A stretch of 64,000 nucleotides of DNA. It comes from a phage. The position numbers were made by a program, and so were the translations under genes. This document shows, in pieces, positions 2,852 to 34,354 of this stretch. Numbering within the stretch: position 1 is the stretch's first letter; each line of letters begins with the position of its first letter. The stretch is taken from the sequence record PX393110.1. One strand, written 5' to 3'. Below the pieces are notes generated by a model. The model was given only the letters and a program-made list of their open reading frames with translations. It was not told the origin of the DNA and made no database searches.

Positions 2852-2975
2852 AGTTTTATCCCAAATTAGACGATTTGATGAACCGGGAAGCGCCTTGACG
2901 CCCCCGCCCACAAGAACGGGCTTTAGGACGGTTCAAAAATCGTTTATTTGAAAAATAAAACGTTTTATTTTTCGT
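2852..2975 (-). promoter_or_regulatory. class-2 conserved leader/promoter cassette a
   Basis: Minus strand: AT-rich palindrome GAAAAATAAAACGTTTTATTTTTC, then CGATTTTTG, then TAAAGCCCGTTCTTGTGGGCGGGGGCG (core 2899..2929), a small GC hairpin, TAATTTGGGATAAAACT and the ATG. Confidence 0.55.
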
Positions 2976-3315
2976 GTCGAACGATGGTATCAATACAGTC
3001 CATATCCATGATAACGAAGATTACAGACTCCCCATTATCTTCCACTACCTTAAGCACCTGCCATCCTTGCTCCATAAAGACTTCTCTCATAGCGGCAAGA
3101 TCTCGCACATGCTTAAGCTCGGTAACTGTAATCACTCTGGGACGAATGAACTTCTTCAGAGTTATCTCGTAAAGATAGGTCCCATGGCTATTGTAGAGAT
3201 TATCTACATTACAGGTATATAGGCCTAACTCCGGACCCCATCCCTGCGATAAGGTCTGGATGAGCTCATAACTAGGCCAATCCCATTTATGCTTACTACG
3301 ATGATACAGAATCAT
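2965..3315 (-). CDS. hypothetical protein
   Basis: ORF track. GGTGG RBS. Overlaps the upstream ORF end by 20 nt. Confidence 0.5.
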   Translation of the reverse strand: MILYHRSKHKWDWPSYELIQTLSQGWGPELGLYTCNVDNLYNSHGTYLYEITLKKFIRPRVITVTELKHVRDLAAMREVFMEQGWQVLKVVEDNGESVIFVIMDMDCIDTIVRHEK

Positions 3316-3601
3316 TAGCTACCACCTTATGATAAAATCTTCCGGTAGTGTGGATTACAGTAGCTATGTACTTAGCGTCCACTTCAGTGCCTAGCAGATT
3401 AGATACCGCCTTAATTACAGTTGCTGCTGGGTGTTTATGGTTAATTACCACATCCAGCATCTTACGATCAGCAGATGGGAAGAACTTCTTATTCCGACGA
3501 GCAATATTCTTAACCACCATGTTGGGATCATCGGATGTATAACCAGCTATTGCCATGGTGGTCAATAAGTCGAAGAATTCGATGGGCTTAGTAGACTTCA
3601 T
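3296..3601 (-). CDS. hypothetical protein
   Basis: ORF track. AAGGT RBS. About 55 nt downstream of a class-1 motif. Confidence 0.55.
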   Translation of the reverse strand: MKSTKPIEFFDLLTTMAIAGYTSDDPNMVVKNIARRNKKFFPSADRKMLDVVINHKHPAATVIKAVSNLLGTEVDAKYIATVIHTTGRFYHKVVANDSVSS

Positions 3602-3622
3602 ATCGTACCTTAACGAGTAAAT

Positions 3623-3666
3623 AAAAATAGGCTGTTAACCGAGGGCGTTCCCCAAGTTAACAGCCT
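3623..3666 (-). terminator. hairpin + U-run using the class-1 motif 3' block as its 5' arm
   Basis: AGGCTGTTAAC-N16-GTTAACAGCCT (11 bp) followed by ATTTTTATTT. Confidence 0.4.
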
Positions 3667-3687
3667 TTGGACCGTATTAAACGGCGG
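3657..3687 (-). promoter_or_regulatory. class-1 motif copy 0 (variant)
   Basis: Minus strand CCGCCGTTTAATACGGTCCAAAGGCTGTTAA, about 55 nt before ATG 3601. The upstream stop (3677) lies inside the motif. Confidence 0.5.
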
Positions 3688-4021
3688 CAGTCAGAAAGTT
3701 ACTGGAGATCAGGAAATCATCCAGAGCTACTTCTGTATTCTTAGGAGTATTGTCTAACTCCCACTCACCCACTCCCAGACGGATCTTAGCCACACCAGGA
3801 GCTATCTCTTCAATAGACAGCTTAGAGCCACCGATGATCTGGAGGCGAAGAGCATTTACAGCTACTGCATACCCAGAGAACGCAGTCTCTACCTGGTGAC
3901 GGAACTCCTGGTCTGAATTAACCTTAGCAGCGTAAGCAGCAGGTTCCATACCCAGTTGCTTAGCATACATCAGATGAAACATGTCCAGGTTAATCTTGTT
4001 ACCAGTAGTCTTCTTAGTCAT
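3677..4021 (-). CDS. hypothetical protein
   Basis: ORF track. GAGGAA RBS. Confidence 0.55.
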   Translation of the reverse strand: MTKKTTGNKINLDMFHLMYAKQLGMEPAAYAAKVNSDQEFRHQVETAFSGYAVAVNALRLQIIGGSKLSIEEIAPGVAKIRLGVGEWELDNTPKNTEVALDDFLISSNFLTAAV

Positions 4022-4520
4022 TTTCGATTTCCTCGGCAGTTACGCCAGTGATGTTTAAATACAGATCGGTCGGTAATTCTGGCAGGGTAGAGACATCCAG
4101 ATTCTCTACGTCCTTGGCCAGAGTTATGTGAGGAGAGTATTCCGCACTGATCTCAGACGGTACCTCCCCAGATGCACGGAGTCGATAGTTAAACGATTGT
4201 AGCAGATCGCTATCGAACGCCAGCACCAGGTAGTTAGCATTCTCACCGAAGATCTCATAGCGAGGATTCTTCAGATGAAGTTTGCTACCTACCAGATCAG
4301 CAATAGTTCCCTCATCCGGAGCACCAGTCCCCGGAGCATACATAAGGGTGCAGTGGTTATCGTGACCGGTATCGAAGTTAAGCTTATCATAATCAGCTAC
4401 TTCAGAGATAACCTGCTTAAGATTATCTATCCAGGCATCAGAGTCTGGACAGAATTTTACCGAGGAGTAACCCTCGTCCACGGACTGTACAAGTCCTAAC
4501 ACTACTTCAGCTTTATTCAT
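4014..4520 (-). CDS. 2H-phosphoesterase superfamily protein (LigT / cyclic-nucleotide phosphodiesterase-like)
   Basis: Two H-x-T/S-x motifs about 75 aa apart (NHCTLMY and PHITLAK), about 168 aa long. The ATG at 4520 lies 3 nt after the upstream stop. Confidence 0.55.
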   Translation of the reverse strand: MNKAEVVLGLVQSVDEGYSSVKFCPDSDAWIDNLKQVISEVADYDKLNFDTGHDNHCTLMYAPGTGAPDEGTIADLVGSKLHLKNPRYEIFGENANYLVLAFDSDLLQSFNYRLRASGEVPSEISAEYSPHITLAKDVENLDVSTLPELPTDLYLNITGVTAEEIEND

Positions 4521-4525
4521 TTTTA

Positions 4526-4825
4526 TCACCATGGCCATGGTAGTTTATTTTCGGGCTCCTGCCTATAGTAGGAGCATTTGATACCCAACGATTCCACAAT
4601 ACTTACAGGAATCTTATCAGTTACTTCAGAGTCTTGATAGATTGGTCCGAATACTGATACGTTTGGATCTTGCAACAGTTCAGATATTAATCCAGCCTCT
4701 TCATAAGTCTCGAAGAATGCTGCGGTGGTATCTGGATTACAGCCGAGACCGGTCCATGAGGTGTAAAACTCGTTTACTCCACAGAGAGCACCGTGCTCCT
4801 TATGCACCACTAAAAATCCCAGCAT
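4526..4825 (-). CDS. hypothetical protein
   Basis: ORF track. The start overlaps the RNase H gene end, so the exact start is uncertain. Confidence 0.45.
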   Translation of the reverse strand: MLGFLVVHKEHGALCGVNEFYTSWTGLGCNPDTTAAFFETYEEAGLISELLQDPNVSVFGPIYQDSEVTDKIPVSIVESLGIKCSYYRQEPENKLPWPW

Positions 4826-5330
4826 CTGTGTATCCTTTAAGTTTATTTCTATACTTAACCATTTCCTGCTTAGCTATCTCATCACAGAGATTATTTACTT
4901 TGTAGCGAGGATTATTGAACTTCTGATGACCTTTGACATGCTTAACCTTAATGGACTTAGGGTTAAGATCGCGAAGCATTTCCATATGCTTATCTATGAA
5001 TTCCTTTAATGCCCATTCGCAATCGCATTGGACGACTACCCTAACACCATCGAATGCTGTCTTAGTCATGGCAAACCATAGGGTCTTCATGATCCCTTCT
5101 AGCTCTGCCCAGTTATTATCTACAGCAGTAAATCCTCCGCGAGTTATATGAGCTCGCTGCTCACCAGGAAGACGAATCCATCCTCCGAAACCAGCAGCCT
5201 TACTCTTATGACAGTACGATGCATCTGAGAAGATTGTTATATAGCCCGCAGGGTCCAGACCGCGTTCGGGAGTACCCTCGAAGTGGATAACTCTACCAAC
5301 ATCTTTCTCACCGATAGCATGTTTCTTCAT
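4800..5330 (-). CDS. RNase H (type 1)
   Basis: The DEDD pattern aligns with E. coli RNase HI: FSDAS (FTDGS), AELEGI (MELMAA), QCDCEW (STDSQY), VKGH...NNLCDEIAK (VKGH..NERCDELAR). Confidence 0.75.
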   Translation of the reverse strand: MKKHAIGEKDVGRVIHFEGTPERGLDPAGYITIFSDASYCHKSKAAGFGGWIRLPGEQRAHITRGGFTAVDNNWAELEGIMKTLWFAMTKTAFDGVRVVVQCDCEWALKEFIDKHMEMLRDLNPKSIKVKHVKGHQKFNNPRYKVNNLCDEIAKQEMVKYRNKLKGYTDAGIFSGA

Positions 5331-6898
5331 TACATATCCACCGTAGTTGCCTGGAACAGACCTACCACCATTTCGTGGGACGGCTTCACGACCGGACTAT
5401 CGAAGTCAATAGAGCTGTTGATGTTCTGGTTAACCATCATCAGGCTACGTACTTCCCAGCAAGCACGATCAGTCAGTACACGGTGAATTGCTGCGGTATC
5501 ACCATCCACGTCCATGTTCTGACCACCCATCGCCATCGGAGGAACCTGAATCTCCTTACCCATGTGAGGTCTGACCTTAAATCCCCATACTGAGTAACGG
5601 TGTAGGGATGGCGCACGGTTCATGAATACCGTAGCATTTTCACACAGTCTCCAGCATACTTCCAGAGCTACTCTGGACTTATTCTTGTACATACGCTGTA
5701 CTTTATTGCTGATGTCGTACATGTTGTACCCTTCGTTAGTCGGGCCACCATATAAGTTCTCCAGCTCACCCAGGATGTCTGGCTGAAGTAATTCGTACAT
5801 CATCTTGAACGGTACACCAAGAGTATCCAGAGGAAGATGCGGAGCCGAAGTAACTACAGAACGACCAGAGTAATCAACACGCTTACCTAACAGGTTACCA
5901 CGAATGCGACCACCCTTGCCTTTAAGGTTATTGATCATCGGCTTAATCAAATTACCGCGATAGTCCTTAGTACCTTCCAGGATTAGTCCGTTAACCATCT
6001 TCTGCATTACAATAGATTCACGAGGAATCAGAGATAACAATGCTTCGCTGGCTTCAGCAGTATCACGAATACTTCTGATACGGATTGCATGGCGCAGGAT
6101 TCGCAGGTAGAGTAAGTTAGTCGGATGATACGACATTACCCCATTACTGATACCGACATCACGGTAGCTCGGAGGATTCACCAGTACTGTAGTGTTATAG
6201 AAGTCGCTGAACTCCGTATAACCACTATTGACTACTGTAGGATCTTCACACTCTTCGATATAGGCTTTCATATCGGCGTGGTTAGCTACCAATGCCTGGA
6301 TAAGACTCAGGAGACCTAATTCCGATGACTCATGCTCGGACATACGACGGATCTTAATCATTACTACTGCGAGGCGCTTCGTGCTATCCTGAACTGGGAT
6401 AGTATTAGAGTAGAACATCGCATACTTCTCACGATCTTCATATTCCGGAAGAGCTGCATTAGACTCACGAACCCGCTCCCGATCATCACCAACCATCTTA
6501 GCTGCCAAACCAGCTTCCTGAACTACGAAGCGGTATCTACCGATAAGGAACTGACCGAACTCTCTCTCTGGAAACCCGAATAACGCAGCCATACGTTTGA
6601 TAGCTAATGGATTCACATAAGGAACGATCGTCTCGATGTGACCCATACGGCGGCGACGGGATTCACGATGCATCGCTACCATACCGCATACATTACACGG
6701 AGGAGCTCCCATAACCAGCTGGTTACCACACTCACACTTACCAGTTACCAGAGGTCCGAATATTCGCTGGCAGAATAGCCCACCAGTGAATGGCTTAGGA
6801 TCATGGAACTTAAGATTATACATGCCCATGTTGGTTACTTCACCACTGGACTCGGCACGGATTACAGCATCAGTTGCAATAGATAACTTTAATTTCAT
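5330..6898 (-). CDS. multisubunit RNA polymerase beta-prime, N-terminal half
   Basis: GLFCQRIFGPLVTGKCECGN (Zn ribbon), RRRRMGHIE, NRAPSLHRYSVWGF, and the catalytic loop NMDVDGD (NADFDGD with all three Asp kept). All are collinear with the N-terminal half of bacterial RpoC. Confidence 0.85.
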   Translation of the reverse strand: MKLKLSIATDAVIRAESSGEVTNMGMYNLKFHDPKPFTGGLFCQRIFGPLVTGKCECGNQLVMGAPPCNVCGMVAMHRESRRRRMGHIETIVPYVNPLAIKRMAALFGFPEREFGQFLIGRYRFVVQEAGLAAKMVGDDRERVRESNAALPEYEDREKYAMFYSNTIPVQDSTKRLAVVMIKIRRMSEHESSELGLLSLIQALVANHADMKAYIEECEDPTVVNSGYTEFSDFYNTTVLVNPPSYRDVGISNGVMSYHPTNLLYLRILRHAIRIRSIRDTAEASEALLSLIPRESIVMQKMVNGLILEGTKDYRGNLIKPMINNLKGKGGRIRGNLLGKRVDYSGRSVVTSAPHLPLDTLGVPFKMMYELLQPDILGELENLYGGPTNEGYNMYDISNKVQRMYKNKSRVALEVCWRLCENATVFMNRAPSLHRYSVWGFKVRPHMGKEIQVPPMAMGGQNMDVDGDTAAIHRVLTDRACWEVRSLMMVNQNINSSIDFDSPVVKPSHEMVVGLFQATTVDM

Positions 6899-6913
6899 TT
6901 TAATTTCTCCTAA

Positions 6914-7633
6914 TCAAGGCTTAGCGACGACAGTATAGGCTTCACGAACGATTTCACGAGCTACTTTAGCCGCATGCTGAGTACCACAATACTGATGCAT
7001 GTATTTGAACTGCACAGGTTGCTGCTGGCGAAGATGATTGATATAGCGACGAAGAGTAGGATGGGTGACACTCTGGTCAGCACCACTCACTACCATCATA
7101 AACGCAAACATCTTCAAACTAGCTTCGCGTTTAGCAGGATATTTCTGCATGATGTAATCGATTACACCGTTCACCAGGAGCTTCAGATCACGAGAACGCG
7201 CTATGGGTGATTTCTGGTCTGGGCTAATGGAAGCAGGATCGATTAATTCCACACGACTTTCGCCATCATCGTCCGTTACGAGAGTAGACTCGTTAAAGGA
7301 CATTATGTGACGACGATCCATCGTTTCTTTATCTTCGTGACGAGTATCACCAGTTTTAGCCATATAACCAGTTGGGTTAACTACCCGAAGATACTCATGC
7401 GACACGATAGAGTCGGCAACGTATGGATTATTATTAACACGAGCAATGTTACGGTCTAGCGAACGTAAATCTCCTGAATCTAATGCGCTATCATAGAAGG
7501 ATAAGTCGATGTACTCGTCCCCAGTGTTAGCAATGTTGAATGTTTCATGGAACTTATAGTTAGCGGTCATTGGTCTATCCCAATTAGAGAATTCAAAGAG
7601 CGACCGCGAGGCCGCTCGGTTACCTGCTATCAA
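6914..7633 (-). CDS. hypothetical protein between the two beta-prime halves
   Basis: ORF track. A TTG start overlaps the upstream TGA (alternative ATG at 7570). No motif recognised. Confidence 0.45.
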   Translation of the reverse strand: MIAGNRAASRSLFEFSNWDRPMTANYKFHETFNIANTGDEYIDLSFYDSALDSGDLRSLDRNIARVNNNPYVADSIVSHEYLRVVNPTGYMAKTGDTRHEDKETMDRRHIMSFNESTLVTDDDGESRVELIDPASISPDQKSPIARSRDLKLLVNGVIDYIMQKYPAKREASLKMFAFMMVVSGADQSVTHPTLRRYINHLRQQQPVQFKYMHQYCGTQHAAKVAREIVREAYTVVAKP

Positions 7634-7968
7634 AGCGCGAAGTAATACCAGTCACCATAAACGCGAATCAGCACTTCCTGACTTTCTGCATCCACATTAG
7701 TGAAGTAGAAGCTACCAAATCCGAACTCCAGAGACTCACCAGTCTGCATGAGATCTGCCATTTCATCCATGAACTTATCGAAGTCCGGATCACGGTCCTG
7801 AACTACAGCGACTTCCACCTCCTTGGTGTACAATTCAGAACGACCAATATGAGGAGCAACCTGGCGGAACTCCATTACAGCACCACGAGCCAGATTTTCC
7901 TCAGCAGCATCCCGAACAGAGGCAGTATCGATTGTAGCGAAAGACTTAATTGCATTTAAACGTGACAT
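7630..7968 (-). CDS. small acidic hypothetical protein (class-2 cassette gene)
   Basis: ATG directly behind the class-2 leader TAATTTGGAGCTAATACT. Confidence 0.55.
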   Translation of the reverse strand: MSRLNAIKSFATIDTASVRDAAEENLARGAVMEFRQVAPHIGRSELYTKEVEVAVVQDRDPDFDKFMDEMADLMQTGESLEFGFGSFYFTNVDAESQEVLIRVYGDWYYFAL

Positions 7969-8075
7969 AGTATTAGCTCCAAATTAGATTATCCAGTGAA
8001 GCGCTACCGCGCCCCACCCAAAAGAACGGGCTTTATGAGCTCCCAAAAATCGGTTATTTGAAAAATAAATTTCAA
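7969..8075 (-). promoter_or_regulatory. class-2 cassette b
   Basis: Core 8008..8040 TAAAGCCCGTTCTTTTGGGTGGGGCGCG, then hairpin GCGC-GGTA-GCGC, TAATTTGGAGCTAATACT and the ATG. AT-rich inverted repeat upstream. Confidence 0.55.
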
Positions 8076-8768
8076 TTATTTTTGGTTAGGAGGCATCTTG
8101 CGAGAACGACGATAGTTGATCATCGTACATGCACAGTTACGCTTATCCTGAGTCTCATAGATAATTGCGCTGGATAATTCCACATTAGACAATAGCAGAG
8201 TCATTACCCGACCTTGGGAAGACAGATCCTGGATGCGCTGCTTATTGATGCACTCTCTTACGGTTTCCTTAGAGTACAGCTTACGATCTCTACGTCCGCA
8301 AGTAATCACGTCTTCTATGGGGACCACCATATCCCCTAGTTCCTTGATTATGAAACGATCATCTGTTATGATAGTAGGGAACGACTTCAATAGTTCTTCC
8401 ACAATCCGTAGAATACCATTGCCCATTCCGTAATACCGCCGATTACTAATATCGTCAATAAGATTATGTCGATATTTTTCATTAATGTAGGTCTTGTGAG
8501 TAGCCAGCAGATAGTACAGTTGCATACCACCGAACCCTTCACATGCCAGATTTCTCCGGAGTACCGCCTTACTTCCTGCGATAGTGAAGTTTCTGATAGG
8601 ATACCAATCAGTAGTCCAAAAGTCGTCTATGTCGTCTATATGCGACTCTATTCCATTATACCAGACTGGTTGTAGGGCATCTGTACCTATGAATTTACGA
8701 CCCTCGTAGCATATACTGTCCCCTACCGTATGGATCAGCAGGGGATTATAGATCTTGCCCACATCCAT
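8076..8768 (-). CDS. hypothetical protein
   Basis: ORF track. Visibly AT-richer than its neighbours. No catalytic motif recognised. Confidence 0.45.
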   Translation of the reverse strand: MDVGKIYNPLLIHTVGDSICYEGRKFIGTDALQPVWYNGIESHIDDIDDFWTTDWYPIRNFTIAGSKAVLRRNLACEGFGGMQLYYLLATHKTYINEKYRHNLIDDISNRRYYGMGNGILRIVEELLKSFPTIITDDRFIIKELGDMVVPIEDVITCGRRDRKLYSKETVRECINKQRIQDLSSQGRVMTLLLSNVELSSAIIYETQDKRNCACTMINYRRSRKMPPNQK

Positions 8769-8776
8769 CTCCCAAG

Positions 8777-10291
8777 TTATTTGTTATTCAGATTTAACCC
8801 AGCAATGATCATCTCGGAACGGGTTCCGAAGCTAACATCACCATTAAGCACTGCCGAGGTAAGACGCTGCTTAACGTTACCGTGGCCAATAGACTTCAAC
8901 CAGCTAGGGTGCTTCGTAGGGATAGCATCAGCTTTAATCGCCAGTACCTCACCCTTATCACCCATGCTGCGAACACCGATTCGTCCGTTATTCATCTTAA
9001 CCAGATCAGTACAACCACGAGCAATGATCTCATGGTGAATCGATGCGATACCGATACCGATGTCGTCGAAGATGTGCTTAAGCTGGATTGATGCTAGCTC
9101 TGCACCCTTAATAGCCGACCCAGCTTCGTGAGCAAGATCCGTGATGCACTTATACTTAGACTCGGATACCTGAGCTACCGCAGTACCTCTACCACCTACC
9201 GTCTTCAGGATGTCAGCCAAGGTATTACTTACCGAAGTACCGAATTCCTTAAGAGTAGTCGAGCCAGATGTATGCTTACCACGAAGACCAGCCTGGGTAG
9301 ATGGTTCGGAGATATGCTGCGCCGACGCCGTTCCAATACCGAAGTTAATCGGGAAGAAGTTAGCTGGTTTAGCCGGATCCATACCGCAGCAATGCTGACA
9401 TACCCCACCCTTAGTCGATTCACAGGTAATCGGGCTAAGGACTTTAACGTTACCCTCTTCATCAGCTAACTGATCAACATTCTCCTTAGTGATCAGTACT
9501 CGATCATTAGTGAATCGATACAGTGCCGATTTCTTAGGTAGGGTAATCACTTCCTTAGTTCCGCAATCTTCTTCCACAATAGACAGCTCACGAGAGCAGT
9601 TAACCAGCTGACGAGCGAACCAGCCAGTCGCAGGTACCAGGAAGAAGTTACCAGCCAGACCCTTACGAGCAGGTCCGCAGGTGTTGAAGTAGTTGATAGG
9701 AGACAACCCGGAGCTTAAGTTCTCCATAATCGGCATCGGCATGATCTTACCAGTCATACCTACCAGAAGACCCTTAGCTACTACCATCGAGCGAACCTGG
9801 GGAGGAGATACACGAGCGCCAGATACACCCATCGCATACAGAGGATTATGACGGTCTACCTCTTTGAACCAGCGATCAGTACATTCGTTGATCACCTTAT
9901 CAGCAGCCACCAGACGATCCTCGTACTTCATCTTACCGAGTTCCTGGGTCATTGATGGGAAGTCGATACCGAAGTCAAACTTAGTGTCGTCATAGCACAA
10001 GCTAAGTCCAGACATAGTTGCTTTATGGAACCCGAACTGCTGCAACTTATGGAGTCTACGCCCAGCTACTTCCGGAGTGTAGTTATTATTGATGTGAGAG
10101 ACGATCTTCGCAGATTCCTTCTTATCGATTTCTTTTTCTGGAAGATAGCCACTGATTTCCCAAATAAACAGTCGACCGATAGTAGTTTCTTTAGGACCAT
10201 CAGAGAAGTAAAAACGCACCGGAGTGGTGTAGGTTGCTTCTTTCATATCAATAAGACGGTGTAATTCATTCAAGGACTTTGATACGATCAT
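8777..10291 (-). CDS. multisubunit RNA polymerase beta-prime, C-terminal half
   Basis: TTIGRLFIWEI, GLSLCYDD, SGARVSPPQVRSMV, bridge-helix-like CGPARKGLAGNF..TGWFARQLVN, EEDCGT, GVCQHCCG, trigger-loop-like AQHISEPSTQ, and C-terminal EMIIAGLN. All are collinear with the C-terminal half of RpoC. Confidence 0.85.
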   Translation of the reverse strand: MIVSKSLNELHRLIDMKEATYTTPVRFYFSDGPKETTIGRLFIWEISGYLPEKEIDKKESAKIVSHINNNYTPEVAGRRLHKLQQFGFHKATMSGLSLCYDDTKFDFGIDFPSMTQELGKMKYEDRLVAADKVINECTDRWFKEVDRHNPLYAMGVSGARVSPPQVRSMVVAKGLLVGMTGKIMPMPIMENLSSGLSPINYFNTCGPARKGLAGNFFLVPATGWFARQLVNCSRELSIVEEDCGTKEVITLPKKSALYRFTNDRVLITKENVDQLADEEGNVKVLSPITCESTKGGVCQHCCGMDPAKPANFFPINFGIGTASAQHISEPSTQAGLRGKHTSGSTTLKEFGTSVSNTLADILKTVGGRGTAVAQVSESKYKCITDLAHEAGSAIKGAELASIQLKHIFDDIGIGIASIHHEIIARGCTDLVKMNNGRIGVRSMGDKGEVLAIKADAIPTKHPSWLKSIGHGNVKQRLTSAVLNGDVSFGTRSEMIIAGLNLNNK

Positions 10292-10310
10292 TACTTAATT
10301 CTCCAAATTA

Positions 10311-10625
10311 TTATGCAGCTACGGATAAGTTTTCAAGGTAACTAACCACTCGGTCGGAATGGCGGAAGATCTTCGGATCCTGAGGTAAGTCAGTCGCGAA
10401 GTTGTGGAAGATCTTGTAGTAGATCTCCCGACGCTGCTCGTCGTTCTTATGAGGAACTCGAACAGTTATGGAAATAGTCTGATCTCCCTTATCCACCAGG
10501 ATGTACGGGAAACCTGTAGAGGAAGCAAATACCCCACGGTAGTTAACACGGTCGAACAGATTACTGAGCATCTGATACGATTTACGCTGGCGGAAAGTAG
10601 CCTTAGACGGATCAAAGTACTGCAT
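10311..10625 (-). CDS. hypothetical protein
   Basis: ORF track 10311..10751. The ATG at 10625 (MQYFDPSK...) has a GAGGAG RBS. Confidence 0.45.
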   Translation of the reverse strand: MQYFDPSKATFRQRKSYQMLSNLFDRVNYRGVFASSTGFPYILVDKGDQTISITVRVPHKNDEQRREIYYKIFHNFATDLPQDPKIFRHSDRVVSYLENLSVAA

Positions 10626-10956
10626 TGATAATCTCCTCAGCCTGATGATCAACCAGGAATACTCCACACTGACCATCATAACCAATACGTTGTGCATTAA
10701 AGCCATACACAGTAATAACTTCAGATATGCCGTCGATAGGATCAGTTTCACCAGTACGAATCACTGGGTAGCGACCAGACAGGATATACTGCTCAATCAC
10801 CATGGCCCAGTGATCGTTATGAGACGACCCAGCCACAATCTTATCAGGCTCGGTGAGGATCAGGTCAGCGAACTTACGCAGAGCGGCCTCCTCGAAGCCA
10901 TCAACATCTGCCAAGGTCACCAGACCATGTTCCTTCTTGAACTCGTCACTAATCAT
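10612..10956 (-). CDS. hypothetical protein
   Basis: ORF track. GGAGG RBS. ATGA overlap with the upstream stop. Confidence 0.5.
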   Translation of the reverse strand: MISDEFKKEHGLVTLADVDGFEEAALRKFADLILTEPDKIVAGSSHNDHWAMVIEQYILSGRYPVIRTGETDPIDGISEVITVYGFNAQRIGYDGQCGVFLVDHQAEEIINAVL

Positions 10957-11420
10957 AAAGCCTCCAGAACTAAGTGGACGTTATTCCCTACGCTGTCATT
11001 TACAACGATATGGGATTTAAACTTATACATTTCGTTGATCACATCGGTCATGTGAATCACCGGAATATACACTCGGTCAGAACCAACTACTGCAACTTCA
11101 TTAAGCCAGTCGTAGTCGATTTCATGGGTCTTCAGAAGATTTATGAGATCACGGTACATGAAGCTTACAGACTTGATTCCGCCACTCATACGAGCAGCCC
11201 AGTCTGTAGCAGGGACGGATTCGATTTCCTTCCTACCTTTCATCTTACGGCGAAAGATGGCGGACTGAACGTTCCATAACTCTGAGAATTCTTGATCGGG
11301 GATTTCTCGACCATGCTTGGTCCGGGAGACCAGTCGAGCTTGAGGATCGGCATTAGGACGGAACTGCTCAGCAATAGAAGGAGCAGCTTGTTGGAAGGCA
11401 GCGAAAAGGGATGTAGACAT
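10953..11420 (-). CDS. hypothetical protein
   Basis: ORF track 10953..11465. The ATG at 11420 (MSTSLFAAF...) has a GGAG RBS, behind a degenerate class-2 core. Confidence 0.5.
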   Translation of the reverse strand: MSTSLFAAFQQAAPSIAEQFRPNADPQARLVSRTKHGREIPDQEFSELWNVQSAIFRRKMKGRKEIESVPATDWAARMSGGIKSVSFMYRDLINLLKTHEIDYDWLNEVAVVGSDRVYIPVIHMTDVINEMYKFKSHIVVNDSVGNNVHLVLEAL

Positions 11421-11465
11421 GACTTTCTCCAGTCTTTCAAGGTCGCAGGCAACGCGACGGATCAT

Positions 11466-11523
11466 TCGGCGGGGAACGCCCCGCGCCCAAGTTAACGGGC
11501 TGCAGAGCGCTCCAGACTTCGTT
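11466..11523 (-). promoter_or_regulatory. class-2 cassette c (degenerate)
   Basis: Core 11477..11508 AGCCCGTTAACTTGGGCGCGGGGCG, then hairpin GCGGGG-CGTT-CCCCGC. AAAAATAAAACGA upstream. Confidence 0.4.
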
Positions 11524-11817
11524 TTATTTTTGGTTTTGAGCTTGCTGGAACATCTTGGTGATTTCCAGCATCAGGTCACGGTAGTCAGAAGTCTGAACTC
11601 CTTCCAAACCGTAGTCGGCAATGATTGACTTGAAGTAGTTCATACCGTCCTGGAGGTTATTGAACTCCAGAGGATCTTCAGCCATCGCCAGGTAGACTTC
11701 GGACATAACCACTGGACGGCCATCTTTCTCATCAACGAAAGCAACCAGAACAGCCAGCTCATCTTTGTCAGCAACTGTAGGATTGGAAGAGAAACCGAAG
11801 TTTTTAGCAGTAAACAT
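11524..11817 (-). CDS. small acidic hypothetical protein (class-2 cassette gene)
   Basis: ATG at 11817 (MFTAKNFG...), behind the leader TAATTTGGAGCTAATT. Confidence 0.55.
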   Translation of the reverse strand: MFTAKNFGFSSNPTVADKDELAVLVAFVDEKDGRPVVMSEVYLAMAEDPLEFNNLQDGMNYFKSIIADYGLEGVQTSDYRDLMLEITKMFQQAQNQK

Positions 11818-11941
11818 AATTAGCTCCAAATTATAACGAACCGTGAAGCGGCCAACCCGCCCCACCCAAAAGAACGGGCTTTAGGACCTCTCAGAGTTCG
11901 TTTTATTTTTCAAAAACATTTCAATAATGAAAAATATTTTT
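11818..11941 (-). promoter_or_regulatory. class-2 cassette d
   Basis: Core 11857..11887 TAAAGCCCGTTCTTTTGGGTGGGGCGG, then hairpin GCGG-GTTGG-CCGC and TAATTTGGAGCTAATT. 12-bp AT inverted repeat ATTTTTCAAAAA/TTTTTGAAAAAT upstream. Confidence 0.55.
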
Positions 11942-11965
11942 GAAAAATAGGCCATCCTTGGCCTA
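11942..11965 (-). terminator. intrinsic terminator
   Basis: UAGGCCA-AGGA-UGGCCUA followed by UUUUUC, 6 nt after the stop at 11971. Confidence 0.6.
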
Positions 11966-11970
11966 ATGAA

Positions 11971-13422: not shown

Positions 13423-13458
13423 TATTTTCTCCAATATGTCGACATAAAAGGATGATGA

Positions 13459-14184
13459 TCAGTCATCCTGGGTAGAAGCTCCTTCCTTAAGTTTAGCTTC
13501 TAATTTCTCCCGTATTAACGGAAGGAATTCTATTCTCCTAACTTCTGTATGGCCACTCTGGATAATATGCTTGACTAGGTCGTAGTCGACTCTAGGAGTA
13601 GATACTTTAATATCATACTCTAAGTCAGTGGCATCTAATTTATTCATCTTAAAGAATTCGGGAATAACATTACGTATCCTGGAGTGTGGATCGTTAGTCA
13701 CTCCTATTTTCACGAACGAGTCGTCCACTACCCAAATATAAAAATAGCACTCTTCATTAAGAGAGGCTAGAGCTATCTGCCTATCACAGCTAGCTCGTTT
13801 CTCTGGATCAGAGTAAGTTTTACGTATAGATTCTGCATTCTTTAATCTAAAATTTGGATCCTTCTGATTCTCTACAAATATTTTCCTAACGACATCTCTA
13901 TGTTTAGGATAATTATTACTGCATGTGGTGCTGCAGAAGTTAGAGTGACCTTGAACTAATCCACGGAAAGTAGACTCTCCTCCACAGTTTAGACATACGC
14001 CATACCCAGGATCAGTTATAATATCCTTAGGTATGTCTAGCGCAGTTTTATTGTGGCACTTCCGGAGATGGACACCAAATGATCTCTTATAATTATAAGA
14101 GGTATCTGGATCGTCGCAATACGGACAAATCCATCTTTGCGTGGTAAAGTTGTAATACTTACTCAGAAACTCTTCATGTGTCAT
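13459..14184 (-). CDS. Zn-finger + T5orf172/GIY-YIG-like domain protein (possible homing-endonuclease-type gene)
   Basis: N-terminal Cys/His clusters (CPYC...HLRKCH, CLNCGG...CSTTC). The C-terminal YFYIWVVDDSFVKIGVTNDPHSRIRN resembles the T5orf172 core. Markedly AT-rich. Sits next to the DNA polymerase gene. Confidence 0.45.
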   Translation of the reverse strand: MTHEEFLSKYYNFTTQRWICPYCDDPDTSYNYKRSFGVHLRKCHNKTALDIPKDIITDPGYGVCLNCGGESTFRGLVQGHSNFCSTTCSNNYPKHRDVVRKIFVENQKDPNFRLKNAESIRKTYSDPEKRASCDRQIALASLNEECYFYIWVVDDSFVKIGVTNDPHSRIRNVIPEFFKMNKLDATDLEYDIKVSTPRVDYDLVKHIIQSGHTEVRRIEFLPLIREKLEAKLKEGASTQDD

Positions 14185-14200
14185 AATATTCTCCGCTTAG

Positions 14201-14234: not shown

Positions 14235-14263
14235 AGGGGAGCTACCCTTTTCGCCCAAACACT

Positions 14264-14294: not shown

Positions 14295-14296
14295 TT

Positions 14297-28581: not shown

Positions 28582-28584
28582 TGA

Positions 28585-29493
28585 TTATTCCTCAATTACG
28601 CCCTTAGCGATTAACTGGCGACGGACGTATGCGTAGCCAGCAGGTGAAGTAGCGAGGACGATGTCCGCACTACGGAAGTTGGTTTCGATATAGAAGCACT
28701 CCTGAAGATCCCGCGTACAGAAGAGCTCAGTGCTCATCATACCCTCGCGTACGTTACATGCGTCTGCAACGAATTGCGCAACATCTTCGAAGTGGTCTAC
28801 CGAATGACTATAGCCGAATCCACGGGCATCAGTAGATATAACGTAGTTATGGCAGTACGGAGTGAAGTCAGTATCTTCGTAGGATTTACCCTGGATAGTG
28901 AAAATATCTGCATAATCCTTGAACCCGCTCGGGCTAACCAGAAGATCCCAGGCAACTACCATACCGTCGATAACATCTGCTTGAAGTACCAGAGAAGTAG
29001 TATATTCGTCCGGCGCCTTATCACAGACCAAAATTGGGGAGTCCCCCAGAAGGTCCGACATAGTGCCTGCACCCTTGCCCCCGTGAACACGATCACGGCG
29101 TACAAACGCCTCCTGAGGCTTCTGGTACAGTCTAAACGACGGTACAATCAGCGAATCAGGCATAGTTCCCAGATTAGCTTCGGAGCGAAGGCAGGATAAT
29201 TGGTCAGCTTTAGACCACGTACTTTCGATAGCGTGCAGATCGTTACCGATTTTGGTATAGATGTAGCTTTCCGGATTGCGGTACTTACCCTGATTCAGCT
29301 CTTCGATAACCGAGTCGAAATAAGGAAGTCGTACTGATCCCTCACGAGGAGCAGTTAACGCTACTGAACCATGCTTGGTATGATCCTGATCAACTACCAT
29401 AACCTGGTCCAGACTTACACCCATCTTAAGAATCTGGGATAGTGTAGCTGCTGTGTGGTTAGTGCAGCCAATCATCAAATCTAACTTCTTCAT
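28585..29493 (-). CDS. ATP-grasp-like ligase
   Basis: Gly-rich loop RVHGGKGAGT and the C-terminal CFYIETNFRSAD (E-x-N-x-R Mg-ATP motif of ATP-grasp enzymes). Moderate support. Confidence 0.45.
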   Translation of the reverse strand: MKKLDLMIGCTNHTAATLSQILKMGVSLDQVMVVDQDHTKHGSVALTAPREGSVRLPYFDSVIEELNQGKYRNPESYIYTKIGNDLHAIESTWSKADQLSCLRSEANLGTMPDSLIVPSFRLYQKPQEAFVRRDRVHGGKGAGTMSDLLGDSPILVCDKAPDEYTTSLVLQADVIDGMVVAWDLLVSPSGFKDYADIFTIQGKSYEDTDFTPYCHNYVISTDARGFGYSHSVDHFEDVAQFVADACNVREGMMSTELFCTRDLQECFYIETNFRSADIVLATSPAGYAYVRRQLIAKGVIEE

Positions 29494-29520
29494 TTTAATT
29501 CCTCAGTTAACTTGTACAAC

Positions 29521-29550
29521 CTAACAGCCTTTCGAACCCTAAAAAGAGCG
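29521..29550 (-). promoter_or_regulatory. class-1 motif copy 7 (variant)
   Basis: CGCTCTTTTTAGGGTTCGAAAGGCTGTTAG, 27 nt before ATG 29493. Confidence 0.5.
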
Positions 29551-29564
29551 AAATAATAGATATC

Positions 29565-29586
29565 TAGCCACCTCGTAAGATGGCTA
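29565..29586 (-). terminator. hairpin after methyltransferase gene
   Basis: TAGCCA-N10-TGGCTA followed by an AU-rich tract, upstream of class-1 copy 7. Confidence 0.3.
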
Positions 29587-29594
29587 TGTATATA

Positions 29595-30335
29595 TTACTT
29601 TAATTCGGAGAGATCTGCTATCTTCACCTTAGCTGTTACATCCCAGATTCCTTCACCAAATCCGGTATCTTCCAGCAGCTTAGGCACTTCACGTTTCTGT
29701 ACCTTAGACTGCTCGTACTTAAGCAGAGGAATATTACCGGTCTTATCCGATTGATCCCACAGATAAGTAGCAGCACCAATGTTATCGAACAGTGCGAGAT
29801 CTGGATTAAACTGGGTAAGGAGTCGGCAGTCCCAGTGAGATTTATGTTCCTCGAAAGGATTAGTCTCCGTACCACGCTGACGATACTCGTAGTTAGGAGT
29901 ACCGATCACGATTTTAGCCTTAGACTGGAATAGCTTAGACAACACCATAAGCCCATCTTCGCTATCCAGATGCTCCAACACATCTAGCCAGATAATAGTG
30001 CCGAATTTATCCAGCTCTTCAATAGGAAGATCTTTCAGCAGTTCAACGATATTGCAGATGTAGATATCGCTATATACATTTACACTGCCTTTGATGTAGT
30101 CTTCGCAGATGTCCAGACCTGTGATCTGACCTTCGAATCCTGCGTTACGGAGAGCTAGACCGATCTCTCCACGACCTAATCCCATATCCAGGATTGGCCC
30201 GGAGATAATTTCGTTACGGAGCATCCATTGGAGAAAGTGCTTCTGGACTAAGTAGGAGGTACCTCCGTTGCCCAGTGAAGCCTTCGTGACCTTAGTACCA
30301 GGAACGAAGTTACACTCGATATGTTTACCAAACAT
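29595..30335 (-). CDS. class I SAM-dependent methyltransferase
   Basis: Motif I ILDMGLGRGEIGLAL, acidic motif II GLDI, and IIWLDVLEHL. Confidence 0.7.
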   Translation of the reverse strand: MFGKHIECNFVPGTKVTKASLGNGGTSYLVQKHFLQWMLRNEIISGPILDMGLGRGEIGLALRNAGFEGQITGLDICEDYIKGSVNVYSDIYICNIVELLKDLPIEELDKFGTIIWLDVLEHLDSEDGLMVLSKLFQSKAKIVIGTPNYEYRQRGTETNPFEEHKSHWDCRLLTQFNPDLALFDNIGAATYLWDQSDKTGNIPLLKYEQSKVQKREVPKLLEDTGFGEGIWDVTAKVKIADLSELK

Positions 30336-31687: not shown

Positions 31688-31689
31688 AA

Positions 31690-33675
31690 TTACTCCTTAA
31701 ACAGACCGTAGTCTTCTAACAGTTGGCGACGAGCACGAGATGAGTACAACAATTTACGAGCGGCATCGAGATGCTCTTCGTTATCATCGTAGGTGACCTG
31801 GATAAGACGGCGAGTCTTCGCATTCACGATGAACTGCTCAGTCTCTTCCTCTGTGTAGGAACCGAGACCCTTACGACGTTCGACATAGGACTTATCGAAG
31901 TCGATCTTATCCTTCTCATCGGCGTAGTAGAACTCGGTCTTCTTACCGTTCTTGACCACATAGAACGGAGCTTCGAGTTTATACAGACGACCATCCTTAA
32001 CCAGCTCAGGAGCATGGATGAGGAAGATTGAACTGATGAGATTACTGATGTGCTGACCATCCACATCCAGGTCAGTCATAATGATGACCTTACCGTAGCG
32101 TGCTTTATCCAGGTCGAACATAGAACCCATGCCGCAGCCGATAGTGTTAATGATCGCCAGCAGTTCTGGGTTATTCACGAACTCCATAATATCCATGGAA
32201 GCCGAGTTACGCATCTTACCACGGAGCGGAAGCACCGACTGATACTCGTTACGCAGTTTGATGATGTTACCCGAAGCAGACGGACCCTCTGTGATGAACA
32301 GTTCACGAAGATCCCAGCGGTCAGACGGAGATTCGTAGATCTTCGCCATGTCTCCGTCCATAGCGGCCTTACGATGATCGTCACCCATCACCAGCTTGGA
32401 TTTAATGAAGTCCATGTTGGAGAGTTTATTCAGGCTGGCTTTGTAAGCCAGGATCTTGGCAATCAGAGCATCGAAGAACTGCTTATTCTGCTCATAAACC
32501 AGGCTGAAGTAGAATGTGAGCTGACTAAGGCATTCTTTCTCATAGAAGAAGTACTCGCCATAATAGTCGTAATCATTGATCTGCTCATCATCCAGCATCA
32601 GCTGATTCTTGGCATAGATTTCCCAGTCGCTCCAGGACATACCGAGACCAGTCAGCTTCTCCTTAGTCTGGGAGGAGAATGCAGTACGGTAGCTGGAGAA
32701 GACGTTAGTGAACACGATCAGACCCAGCTTAGCATCACCAACAGTGATGGCCGAGTTGATTTTATTCAGCATGCCGCCGAGCGCTCTCGTGACCAATTTC
32801 TCATGCAGACCACCATGCGGGTTATTGATCAAGTTGATCATGTCCACGTGGGAGTAAGACATATTCTTATCAGAATAGCCCAGCTCTCCGGAGAATGTCA
32901 GACGATCGTTGAACGAGAACTCATACTTAACAGTAGAGTCCAGGAACAGCTTCTCATTTTCGGCAACATCCGCACGGAAGTCCCAGGTAGCCAGAGCTTC
33001 ACCATTTACGGTGATAGTGGCATCTCGACCAATCAGGGAGATCTTCAGAGGAACCGTGTCCACATCAGACCAGATGCTGCGGTACAGAGTAGCATCAGGA
33101 ACCAGGAAGACTGCTGTAGAGAAGTCAGTAGCCTTTAAGGTCTCCAGCACTTCATCCGGAATACCGTCATCGTGAAGATCGTTCAGATCATTGATTACGG
33201 CATCAATCTGCATGATACCACGACGGAAGCCAAGCACGTAGAACTGACCAGGCTCCATAGGGATGTGTGCCTTATCACCCTGCATAACACGGCGAATCAC
33301 GATAAAGCGCTCAGACACTGCGTTAACAGCAGAGCTACCTACACCGTGAGTACCGGAAGTGATTTCGCGGTTATCACCCAGCTTGGAACCTGCGTGAAGA
33401 TCTGTTACAGTAGAGAACAGGATTGACTTAGTCGGATCTTCCGGATCAGCGTAGATAGGAATGCCGCGACCGTTGTCGGTAACCAATTTATAGGATTCAC
33501 GGTTAATGATCTGCACCAGGTTGGCATGACCATTAAGCAGCTCATCCTCCGCGTTATTGATTATTTCCTGGAGAGGATGAGTGTAGTTAATCGGGTCGCC
33601 CAGATACATCGACACGTTCTGACGAACGTTATCAGGGTAACGCAATCTTGTGATTTCAATAGCATGTTCTGACAT
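31690..33675 (-). CDS. type II DNA topoisomerase, GyrB/T4 gp39-like ATPase-TOPRIM subunit
   Basis: EIINNAEDE, DNGRGIP, GTHGVGSSAVNA, TOPRIM ELFITEGPSASG, IMTDLDVDGQHI. ATG at 33675 with GGAG RBS. Confidence 0.85.
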   Translation of the reverse strand: MSEHAIEITRLRYPDNVRQNVSMYLGDPINYTHPLQEIINNAEDELLNGHANLVQIINRESYKLVTDNGRGIPIYADPEDPTKSILFSTVTDLHAGSKLGDNREITSGTHGVGSSAVNAVSERFIVIRRVMQGDKAHIPMEPGQFYVLGFRRGIMQIDAVINDLNDLHDDGIPDEVLETLKATDFSTAVFLVPDATLYRSIWSDVDTVPLKISLIGRDATITVNGEALATWDFRADVAENEKLFLDSTVKYEFSFNDRLTFSGELGYSDKNMSYSHVDMINLINNPHGGLHEKLVTRALGGMLNKINSAITVGDAKLGLIVFTNVFSSYRTAFSSQTKEKLTGLGMSWSDWEIYAKNQLMLDDEQINDYDYYGEYFFYEKECLSQLTFYFSLVYEQNKQFFDALIAKILAYKASLNKLSNMDFIKSKLVMGDDHRKAAMDGDMAKIYESPSDRWDLRELFITEGPSASGNIIKLRNEYQSVLPLRGKMRNSASMDIMEFVNNPELLAIINTIGCGMGSMFDLDKARYGKVIIMTDLDVDGQHISNLISSIFLIHAPELVKDGRLYKLEAPFYVVKNGKKTEFYYADEKDKIDFDKSYVERRKGLGSYTEEETEQFIVNAKTRRLIQVTYDDNEEHLDAARKLLYSSRARRQLLEDYGLFKE

Positions 33676-33711
33676 AGTTTCTCCGGTCAGGTTTAAATAA
33701 GCTCGCACAGT

Positions 33712-33742
33712 TTAACAGCCTTTGGAGGGCTCAAAGGAGCGG
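33712..33742 (-). promoter_or_regulatory. class-1 motif copy 9
   Basis: CCGCTCCTTTGAGCCCTCCAAAGGCTGTTAA, 36 nt before ATG 33675. The upstream stop lies inside the motif. Confidence 0.6.
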
Positions 33743-33994
33743 TTCTGGAAGAGCGTACCAACCAGACAGCTCAAAGAACTCATCCAGAGTTCCATTAAAG
33801 AAGGAGTCCAACTCCTTAGCCATTTCCCTGGCGAAGCGACCAGATTCGGTCGACATAACCACACGAGCTTCCTTCATGGGCTCCTTAACCACTTCGTACT
33901 GATCCTGGTTAGGGTAATATACAATGGCGCATTTCAGGTTTACCGACATAACCACCACCGTATTGAATTTAGTGACTTCGAGAAGCTTAACCAT
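33731..33994 (-). CDS. hypothetical protein
   Basis: ORF track. TAATG overlap with the upstream gene. Its stop lies inside a class-1 motif. Confidence 0.5.
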   Translation of the reverse strand: MVKLLEVTKFNTVVVMSVNLKCAIVYYPNQDQYEVVKEPMKEARVVMSTESGRFAREMAKELDSFFNGTLDEFFELSGWYALPEPLL

Positions 33995-34236
33995 TATGCA
34001 GCTTCCCCTGTGACTTTCAGGAACTCGGCCACTTCTTCTGCATCAAATTTGCAGGAAAACTTAGCGCATTCCATAACCGCTTCGAACAGGGTATTGAAGC
34101 TGGAGTCATAACCACCGATTTGGCTAGAGAAGTGAACATTGAACTTTGTATCGAGGCCTGGGGTGTGCTGAATTTCAGCAGAGTTAGCGATTGCAACCAG
34201 AACAGCACCACCACGTGAACTTTTGATTATAGCCAT
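33994..34236 (-). CDS. small hypothetical protein (class-2 cassette gene)
   Basis: ATG directly behind the class-2 leader TAATTTGGGATAAAATC. Confidence 0.55.
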   Translation of the reverse strand: MAIIKSSRGGAVLVAIANSAEIQHTPGLDTKFNVHFSSQIGGYDSSFNTLFEAVMECAKFSCKFDAEEVAEFLKVTGEAA

Positions 34237-34354
34237 GATTTTATCCCAAATTAGAAGAGCCGCAGCGGGAACGCCCCGCCACCCAAAAGAACGGGCTTAA
34301 AGACGGCTCATAAATCGTTTTATTTTTCATTATTTGAAAAATAAAATAATCTAC
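34237..34354 (-). promoter_or_regulatory. class-2 cassette e
   Basis: Core 34272..34304 TTAAGCCCGTTCTTTTGGGTGGCGGGGCG, then hairpin GCGGG-GCGTT-CCCGC and TAATTTGGGATAAAATC. AT inverted repeat TTTTATTTTTCA/TGAAAAATAAAA upstream. Confidence 0.55.

Follow-up and report, generated by a model that had tools for sequence, protein, structure and literature searches.

A repeated candidate promoter cassette with a 5′ hairpin precedes small genes and split β′ operons in phage PX393110.1

Genomic context and copy number

We analysed a window of 64,000 nt from the phage sequence record PX393110.1 (all coordinates refer to this whole stretch), the first 20 kb of which match Escherichia phage vB_EcoM_IME392 (IME392; 116 kb genome) at 97.3% identity over 94% and phage EP_H11 at 94.0% identity. 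Genes run on the minus strand from 1 to ~50,240, and structural genes on the plus strand from ~50,420. Among the leftward genes recurs a cassette of ~120 bases that stands in front of small open reading frames (ORFs) and also at the head of the operons for a split RNA polymerase (RNAP) β′ subunit, cassette B heading the operon of the N-terminal half and cassettes C and F that of the C-terminal part. The best-supported reading of this element, towards which we lean slightly, is a phage-specific promoter with a stabilizing hairpin at the 5′ end of the predicted transcript.

A profile made from the copies gave four strong matches with E values from 3e-36 to 1e-29, at 8093-7961, 2984-2842, 11944-11811 and 34355-34230, and a fifth, weak one (11529-11467; E 1e-4), all on the minus strand. 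A covariance model of core and hairpins, built from the genomic copies as an earlier sequence-only reading of this DNA had proposed, recovered the same set in the window (E <= 1e-24) and six copies in each of the IME392 and EP_H11 genomes, with no match beyond cassette copies in any of the three; the sixth copy (IME392 10549) lies outside the window. The five copies of ~120 bases reported by that reading were thus recovered by both methods, as four strong copies and one degenerate. Orientation always followed that of the genes, in the five copies of the window and in the six of each close relative. Scans of IMG/VR with the β′ protein and with both motif classes described below gave no matches, and a scan of JGI metagenomes with AGCCCGTTCTTNTGGG gave 120 loci, none of which was a real cassette after profile filtering. 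Neither a description of the cassette motif family nor a paper on these candidate promoters was found in the literature searched (on phages RP13 and YerA41 and on phage-encoded β′).

The first ORFs behind cassettes A, B, C, D and F encode proteins of 94, 112, 97, 80 and 155 amino acids (aa) with isoelectric points of 4.05, 4.31, 4.24, 4.92 and 6.51 respectively. They are thus mostly acidic and, by BLASTP, mutually unrelated, as had been claimed from the sequence, and none matched PHROG.

Architecture of the cassettes

The cassette parts follow the order that the sequence-only reading gave for them, i.e. from 5′ to 3′ an AT-rich inverted repeat, a block CGAWYTNTG (block A′), a core TAAAGCCCGTTCTTTTGGG, a GC hairpin, and TAATTTGGRG followed by the ATG of the small acidic ORF. 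Block A′, always at the same offset, was exact (CGATTTTTG) in two copies and appeared as CGAACTCTG, CGATTTATG or CGAAGTCTG in others, while the 26-mer core was exact in two copies, had at most three mismatches in a third and took the form ...CTTGTGGGCGGGGG in the copy at 2921. The ribosome-site word TAATTTGGAG or TAATTTGGGA was found in four copies; the former (TAATTTGGRG) also stands before genes without a cassette, at 2514 and 10301, and so marks a favoured context for ribosome sites rather than the cassette as such.

Cassette A (2849-2985; this and the following cassettes are all on the minus strand) consists of an AT palindrome (2973-2950, arms GAAAAATAAAAC and GTTTTATTTTTC), block A′ as CGATTTTTG (2942-2934), the core TAAAGCCCGTTCTTGTGGGC (2925-2906), a hairpin (~2909-2880), TAATTTGGGA (2868-2859) and an ATG at 2851, which opens the 94-aa gene (2851-2567). 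Cassette B (7966-8095) has its AT inverted repeat at 8083-8061, block A′ at 8052-8044, the core at 8035-8016, the hairpin GGTGGGGCGC-GGTA-GCGCTTCACT at 8018-7995 (z -4.5 against shuffles), TAATTTGGAG at 7986-7977 and the ATG at 7968; its operon encodes the 112-aa protein, a 218-aa protein, the N half of β′ (6898-5330), an RNase H and onward. In cassette C (11815-11965), a terminator (11965-11943) and an AT inverted repeat (11949-11904) come before block A′ as CGAACTCTG (11900-11892), the core (11883-11864), the hairpin (11865-11843; z -3.2), TAATTTGGAG (11833-11824) and the ATG at 11817 of the 97-aa gene (11817-11524), the operon running to the C half of β′ (10291-8777). Cassette D (34234-34379) likewise begins with a terminator (34379-34357) and continues with an AT inverted repeat (34346-34318), block A′ as CGATTTATG (34317-34309), the core TTAAGCCCGTTCTTTTGGGT (34300-34281), a hairpin (34282-34262), TAATTTGGGA (34253-34244) and the ATG of the 80-aa gene at 34236. 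The G runs that open the hairpins of cassettes A to D, at 2909, 8018, 11866 and 34283, are the predicted transcription starts. The degenerate copy, cassette F (11418-11532; found at 11500), is without palindrome, TAAAG, CTTTTG word and TAATTTGG; it has CAAAAATAAAACGAAGTCTG at 11532-11513, the core TGCAGCCCGTTAACTTGGGC at 11504-11485, a hairpin GCGGGG-CGTT-CCCCGC at ~11486-11467 and the ATG of the 155-aa gene at 11420. Cassettes C and F flank the 97-aa gene, which is replaceable (see below).

The hairpin

On the sense strand, all copies form a first hairpin (HP1; GCCCG-TTCTTT-TGGGY) and a directly abutting GC hairpin of 6-10 bp (HP2), the latter beginning 0-3 nt past the core in 14 of 16 copies drawn from four phage lineages. 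The hairpin cores listed by the sequence-only reading were recovered with the same sequences. Compared with dinucleotide shuffles, the folds had z < -1.6 in 12 of 14 copies, and the presence of an uninterrupted stem starting within the first six bases gave a combined p of 1.4e-8. Stems change while pairing is retained: that of cassette B is GGGGCGC/GCGCTTC here and GCGGG/CCCGC in the 73%-identical Logan relative SRR31170557, in which the stem of cassette C is GGCGGGG/CCCCGCC in place of GGGGCGG/CCGCTTC. In cassette A of EP_H11 a GCG-to-CGC change moves the register and leaves a 7-bp helix, and all six stem point substitutions among close orthologues retain pairing (as G:U, A:U or U:G). Over 19 distinct hairpins we counted 130 G:C, 8 A:U and 33 G:U pairs, and folding of the sense strand is more favourable by 4-10 kcal/mol than that of its complement; this G:U-rich pairing and strand preference point to a hairpin that acts as RNA, or at least in the sense strand, which fits the RNA-level leader that the sequence-only reading had suggested.

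The hairpin has no U tract (its tails are CTTCACTGG, CTTCCCGG or CTGCGGC) and so does not have the form of an intrinsic terminator; copy C alone was flagged as terminator-like. An Rfam 15 search of the window at gathering score returned two tRNAs only, and permissive scans of cassettes B, C and F gave chance-level matches only.

Two abutting sense-strand hairpins at the start of long operons are also what a put- or nut-like antitermination RNA would look like, HP1 (GCCCG/TGGGY) and HP2 together making RNAP pass terminators in the long β′ operons, and the phage tampers with β′, the subunit that HK022 put RNA contacts. We nevertheless hold this to be very improbable: the HP1 stem is invariant within the Escherichia coli phage group, shows no covariation and is absent from Ralstonia phage RP13; there is no Rfam match; and no strong terminators are seen within the operons that cassettes B and C head. 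HP1 is itself unproven as a conserved helix, an apparent compensatory change in Acinetobacter phage Ab1-TPeters having turned out to belong to a different motif copy.

Relation to class 1 motifs

A second kind of motif, class 1 (CCGCTCTTTTG-N5-TCGAAAGGCTGTTAAAGTGT, i.e. block A, spacer, block B), occurs 17 times on the minus strand between 3630 and 50290 and ~26 times per genome, always oriented with the genes and usually right after a stop codon. Its anchors GGCTGTTAA lie at 50252, 48906, 48299, 48241, 48059, 46827, 45362, 44372, 39165, 33720, 30370, 27188, 23313, 21457, 17873, 14272 and 3665. A promoter is required in the divergent region (50240-50420) where the leftward cluster begins; class 1 is the only recognizable motif there, and by this reasoning it must be a promoter.

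The cassettes (class 2) resemble class 1 along their whole length. When position weight matrices (PWMs) of the class 1 blocks were run over the class 2 copies, block B (TCGAAAGGCTGTTAAAGTGT) matched at offset -6 in all six (xxTAAAGCCCGTTCTTTTGG), the degenerate copy included (p 3e-4 to 3e-3), so that TAAAGCCCGTTCTTTTGG of the class 2 core aligns with the start-proximal block of class 1 at the same offset. Block A′ (CGAWYTNTG) lies at -22 in class 2 and block A at -23 in class 1. The core of cassette F (GCCCGTTAACTTGGG) differs from class 1 copy 3665 (GGCTGTTAACTTGGG) at two positions. Because both class 1 blocks align colinearly at fixed offsets, we take class 2 to be a diverged paralogue of class 1 that corresponds to it over its full length, and not a member of the family; a search with nhmmer and a class 1 profile (block A CCGCTCTTTTG, spacer, block B AAAGGCTGTTAAAGTGT) gave no class 2 match. 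Class 2 differs from class 1 in its AT-rich block A′, in a T-rich TTCTTTT for the A-rich TTAAAGT, and in the added AT inverted repeat and hairpin.

The sequence-only reading had seen the relation differently, taking CCGYTCTTTTG as a half-site shared by both classes, perhaps early and middle promoters, and read by one factor; in a fuller form of this register the word would be an upstream, -35-like site, the start would lie past the hairpin, and a DNA hairpin would replace the -10 element, as in the early promoters of phage N4. The relation as such stands, and much about the word is real: with up to one mismatch it occurs 15 times against 1.56 expected, on the minus strand only; the class 1 block A PWM matches at +2 on exactly this half-site, CCGTTCTTTTG, scoring as true class 1 sites of that block do (p 1.6e-4); TCTTTTG and TAAAGT are spaced by 17 nt in class 1; and the distance from TTTTG to the hairpin end is nearly constant at 23-26 nt. 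Yet the CTTTTG word is gone from cassette F and its orthologues, which have TTAACT or TTCACT and keep the block B match, a relative from ENA has CTCTTG in its place, G:T pairs would strongly weaken a template-strand hairpin, no gene for a giant N4-type virion RNAP was seen among the ORFs examined, and the loops are of 3-6 nt as against the 3 nt of the N4 type. A lone upstream half-site therefore fits less well than full colinearity; we find the register improbable, and the half-site resemblance, real as it is, is probably not a functional link to class 1.

Promoter type and terminators

The sequence-only reading could not fit a sigma-70 promoter, and neither could we. A consensus scan (-35 TTGACA/-10 TATAAT, 16-18 nt) found no site common to the cassette copies, and over positions 1-15,000 it found 15 sites against 25.7 in shuffles; in a PWM scan the best candidates stood in differing registers and scored 6-10.8, the background being 6.1 +/- 1.9. 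Sigma-54, sigma-32, sigma-28 and sigma-E promoters, an IHF site and the T4 late box gave no fit by eye. An extended -10 element (TGnTAnnnT) in class 1, which 15 of the 17 copies fit, was rejected as well, given that its N4 positions vary in Ab1-TPeters and that a start ~7 nt downstream would delete the ribosome site of copy 50252.

Immediately before cassettes C and D stand strong canonical terminators with a UUCG loop (11965-11943 and 34379-34357), so a new transcription start is needed there, and a terminator at 30434 precedes class 1 copy 30370. No strong terminator precedes cassette A or B. The intrinsic terminators at 38047, 34379, 30434 and 2557 (minus strand) share a CTTCGG hairpin top (UUCG tetraloop), and the same type follows the DNA polymerase gene of Ab1-TPeters (~11155-11180 of the stretch L008).

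The terminators bear on a different account, in which the cassette initiates nothing and serves as an RNA processing or stability element: transcripts reading through from class 1 would be cut at the AU-rich stretch by RNase E or a phage nuclease, and the hairpin would cap the new 5′ end. RNase III sites between the early genes of T7, where a hairpin caps the new 5′ end, offer a model for this. Such an account would explain the sense-strand specificity of the hairpins, the AU-rich single-stranded stretch directly before them, the lack of a recognizable host promoter, and cassettes A and B without strong upstream terminators. It sits badly with the canonical terminators before cassettes C and D, with a conserved block A′, spacer length and core that are colinear with class 1, itself necessarily a promoter, and with stems too short for RNase III (5 bp in HP1, 6-10 bp in HP2). 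We judge it unlikely, though with a real chance of being right.

Predicted start site

For class 1, the start can be placed from copy 50252, in which the Shine-Dalgarno sequence (SD) GGAGG begins 1 nt past the motif (GGCTGTTAAACCGT-T-GGAGG-N9-ATG). It must therefore coincide with the 3′ edge of the motif, as it does in promoters of T7 type, and not fall ~7 nt further, as after a sigma-70 -10 box. As the two classes are colinear, the class 2 start would fall on the G run that opens the hairpin.

Class 1 copies 3665 and 44372 (3630-3665 and 44315-44372, minus strand) have hairpins of another kind, in which their own GGCTGTTAAC is the 5′ arm and GTTAACAGCC, 16-40 nt downstream, the 3′ arm; a T tract follows at 3665, and at 44372 the hairpin covers the SD and the start codon. 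The hairpin at 3665 looks like a terminator that would stop read-through transcripts and spare those started at the motif, in agreement with a start downstream of GTTAA.

Split β′ genes and distant relatives

The N-terminal half of β′ (5330-6898, minus strand), downstream of cassette B, contains Rpb1 domains 1-2 by Pfam and PDB sequence searches and matches E. coli β′ with E 4e-50; the C-terminal part (8777-10291, minus strand), downstream of cassettes C and F, contains Rpb1 domains 3-5. By tblastn the two phage pieces span residues 20-514 (31% identity) and 570-990 (27%) of E. coli RpoC (β′). A split β′ without a detectable phage β suggests a hybrid polymerase that would use the β subunit of the host. 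The IME392 record names the N half 'beta subunit'. β′ is also split in RP13 and unsplit (1263 aa) in Vibrio phage 1.031.O, no β being annotated nearby in the fetched stretches.

Directly upstream of the N half lies the gene of the 218-aa protein (6914-7570, minus strand), a homologue of which occupies the same position in Ab1-TPeters (22% identity, E 1.5e-7). It had no match in Pfam or PHROG, its AlphaFold model was poor (mean predicted confidence, pLDDT, 47.7) and a Foldseek search returned nothing at E <= 0.001. We regard it as a candidate polymerase partner or specificity factor.

Searches with the N half (tblastn) found relatives at 30-38% identity in RP13, Ab1-TPeters, the Vibrio phages 1.031.O, Va2 and 150E35-1 and the Rhizobium RHph_TM30 group, and more distant ones in YerA41 and Carin-5. 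De novo repeat searches near the β′ genes of RP13, Ab1-TPeters and 1.031.O, in which the N half is 31-38% identical, yielded two motif classes in Ab1-TPeters and in RP13, and one in the Vibrio phage. The latter has five copies of CCCCT-N4-GAGTYT-N4-AACCCCTTTCTTTTGTGGTGGGG, most with a hairpin after them, giving the pattern AACCCCTTTCTTTTGTGGTGGGG, hairpin, then AATCTATTGGAG; a leader of CTATTGGAGAT type precedes the ATG at copies 17534, 18506 and 20752, and one copy stands directly upstream of the unsplit β′ gene. In RP13 an AT palindrome (GAAAAAATTTTTTATC) is followed by CAGTTAGTTTGGGTGCGGG with a hairpin; the operon of the N half and that of the C half each have such an element upstream, and the covariance model matched one of the copies (E 0.015). 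The pattern in Ab1-TPeters, one copy of which is upstream of the N-half operon, is a palindrome GGAAAACAGCTGTTTTCC, TGTYTCTTAAA, N8, AARCCTGTT-N4-TGTCGGGG and a hairpin. In each of RP13 and Ab1-TPeters a start-proximal word is common to both classes (AAGAC in the former, AARCCTGTT or AAAGCTGTT in the latter), which parallels AAAGSCYGTT here. Since the motif is unlike sigma-70 promoters although the hosts share the sigma-70 consensus, a phage-encoded determinant would be its simplest reader.

Inverted repeats and gene exchange at the cassette edges

The AT-rich inverted repeats of cassettes A to D exceed those of shuffled sequences (p <= 0.017); the sixth copy has no significant repeat, and those of the RP13 and Ab1-TPeters copies are weak or lacking. 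Arms, orientation and spacing (0, 5, 7 or 10 nt) vary between copies, and cassette A of the Logan relative SRR31170557 has a different perfect palindrome (arms AAATCTTTTTGA and TCAAAAAGATTT). Such variation argues against a fixed dimer operator; the repeats may instead be an insulator or weak terminator, a UP-like element or easily melted DNA.

Homology with the close relatives breaks at the edges of all four strong cassettes (at 11820/11521, 34225-34253/34023, 7957/7666 and 2976). The 97-aa gene (11817-11524) is replaced in relatives, from the ATG of cassette C to the start of cassette F, and at cassette D IME392 has a diverged allele (35% identity) and EP_H11 an unrelated 48-aa ORF. In EP_H11, moreover, the 112-aa gene after cassette B is deleted, the SD and ATG of the cassette being fused to the next gene, and the DNA upstream of cassette A (2977-3400) is missing. 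A contig from ENA shows two additional small genes behind cassette C, joined within the TATAATTTGGAGCTA leader. From these comparisons the cassette appears to be a junction for the exchange of accessory genes. The fusion in EP_H11 (28905-29660; MSRL...) is in frame, its 251-aa product being the 218-aa protein with an N-terminal extension of 33 residues.

Statistically significant inverted repeats and breakpoints at the edges of the four strong cassettes could together mean that these are chiefly DNA-level sites, repeats and core acting as operators for a regulator or targets for a recombinase, with a secondary link to expression. The arms change and their spacing shifts in a way unlike a dimer operator, the cassettes keep a fixed orientation and distance to the start codons, and ordinary homologous recombination between repeats explains the breakpoints; we give this view hardly any chance.

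A working model and what weighs against it

Under the reading that we favour, a phage-specific promoter with a 5′-terminal stabilizing hairpin, an upstream terminator and/or the AT inverted repeat, where present, would close the preceding unit. Next would come a phage-specific promoter of ~45 nt made up of block A′ (CGAWYTNTG), a spacer of 8-9 nt and the start-proximal core TAAAGCCCGTTCTTTTGG. Initiation at or beside the G run after the core would place the variable GC hairpin at the extreme 5′ end of the mRNA, where it could protect against 5′-end-dependent decay and insulate the leader, and the unstructured leader with TAATTTGGRG would ensure strong translation of the first gene. That gene would encode a small acidic protein, possibly for host take-over or anti-defence, and two cassettes would drive the operons for the two β′ halves. 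The repeated cassettes would also supply short homology by which first genes could be gained, lost and swapped through recombination. Recognition may be due to an RNAP that is hybrid or modified by the phage, possibly after priming by proteins delivered with the virion.

A number of results weigh against this reading. Promoter activity, the start, a role of the hairpin in RNA and the polymerase or factor that would read the cassette are all predictions. No homologues of RpoB or RpoD were found across the IME392 genome by tblastn and phmmer with the E. coli proteins (nor did Pfam reveal a sigma factor among the late-region ORFs). Taken individually, the folds of two copies are insignificant (D, z -0.85; F, z +0.34), and GC-rich segments fold by chance. 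The hairpin had been described by the sequence-only reading as covarying: pairing kept with changed stems holds, at orthologous sites too, but a formal covariation count in one consensus register was no better than shuffles, helix 2 of the covariance-model alignment being 59.8% paired with a score reached by 54 of 500 shuffles; register and length of the hairpin differ between copies. The case for the hairpin comes from folding each copy by itself and from stems of shifting register. A hairpin in the cassette register is not general downstream of class 1 motifs (p 0.15). For the motifs of distant relatives, likeness was assessed by eye and over short sequences, save for the one weak model match. 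Finally, if class 2 needs the phage β′, the β′ operons pose a chicken-and-egg problem. Delivery with the virion would resolve it, as may happen in YerA41, the RNAP subunits of which are early gene products associated, with a sigma factor, with the particle, and are suggested by the authors to be injected (PMC7354516).

A bolder version is tentative, and we think it less probable than its negation: classes 1 and 2 would form the promoter code of a hybrid RNAP in which the split phage β′ (~30% identical) replaces that of the host, the class 2 cassettes would act as an autocatalytic switch for β′, and the code would be common to phages of Escherichia, Acinetobacter, Vibrio and Ralstonia.

Comparison with known systems

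The closest parallel is with the promoter-early stem-loop (PeSL) cassettes of T4-type phages, which are mobile regulatory cassettes (Arbiol et al. 2010, PMC2839356; PMC4122927). Like the present elements, PeSLs are repeated intergenic composites in which an AT-rich stretch is combined with a promoter (a candidate one here) and a G-run stem-loop, and they precede small orphan genes at insertion, deletion or replacement junctions of close relatives, as was found here. In contrast, PeSL promoters match the sigma-70 consensus and our cassettes, AT-rich upstream, contain no sigma-70 promoter; the PeSL stem-loop terminates upstream transcription and the present hairpin lies downstream of the core without a U tract; and the phage lineages are unrelated.

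Promoters of the T7 group with 5′ stem-loop leaders (phi10, the gene 10 leader) are also conserved up to the start, with a transcript that opens on a G run and 5′ hairpin followed by a strong ribosome site (the start being a predicted one here), and with many unit promoters per genome; they are, however, read by a single-subunit RNAP, none of which was seen here, and share no sequence similarity with the cassettes. The early promoters of N4 have a short GC hairpin of variable sequence beside conserved sequence upstream of early genes, but these hairpins have a stem of 5-7 bp and a 3-nt loop, form on the template strand and serve a giant virion RNAP, whereas the cassettes favour the sense strand, have loops of 3-6 nt and come without a giant RNAP ORF in the ORF lists or annotations. 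Jumbo phages of the phiKZ and AR9 type likewise combine β′-like genes with non-sigma-70 motifs; they possess divergent sets of β and β′, as against a split β′ only, ~30% identical to that of E. coli, here. The promoter consensus sequences of AR9 and phiKZ differ from our motifs. Stabilizers of the ompA 5′ untranslated region type also place a hairpin a few nt from the presumed 5′ end before an unstructured leader and an SD; they represent a generic principle rather than a family, and stabilization is a prediction in the present case.

The phage group to which IME392, EP_H11, RP13, Ab1-TPeters and Vibrio phage 1.031.O belong, with others, has a bacterial-type β′ and little-studied transcription, on which the literature searched yielded no paper. 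Its two motif classes are candidate promoters with predicted starts and offer substrates for asking how a β′-only phage redirects transcription. The cassettes would extend the PeSL idea of cassette-mediated shuffling of small genes to an unrelated lineage and a non-sigma-70 promoter, and the module of promoter, 5′ hairpin and ribosome site might be useful as a compact expression part.

Other features of the window

At 27188-27130 (minus strand) a class 1 motif is followed ~25 nt later by an 11-bp GC terminator (GGGGTTAGGTC...GGCCTAACCCC and a T tract) before the gene 27112-26501; this could be an attenuator or give rise to a short RNA. The region 46221-48300 (minus strand) has tRNA genes at 46982-47054 and 47203-47276 amid the class 1 motifs 48299, 48241, 48059 and 46827, and its segments 46221-46827 and 47760-48060 contain no obvious ORF. 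On the plus strand at ~50395-50420, just before the first rightward structural gene, CTATAAACAGGAG looks like the late promoter box of T4, TATAAATA, and may represent a third promoter class. The 921-aa ORF at 34385-37150 (minus strand) joins, in one polypeptide, a calcineurin-like phosphoesterase N-terminus of Mre11/SbcD type to Rad50/SbcC-like AAA, SMC_N and zinc-hook regions.

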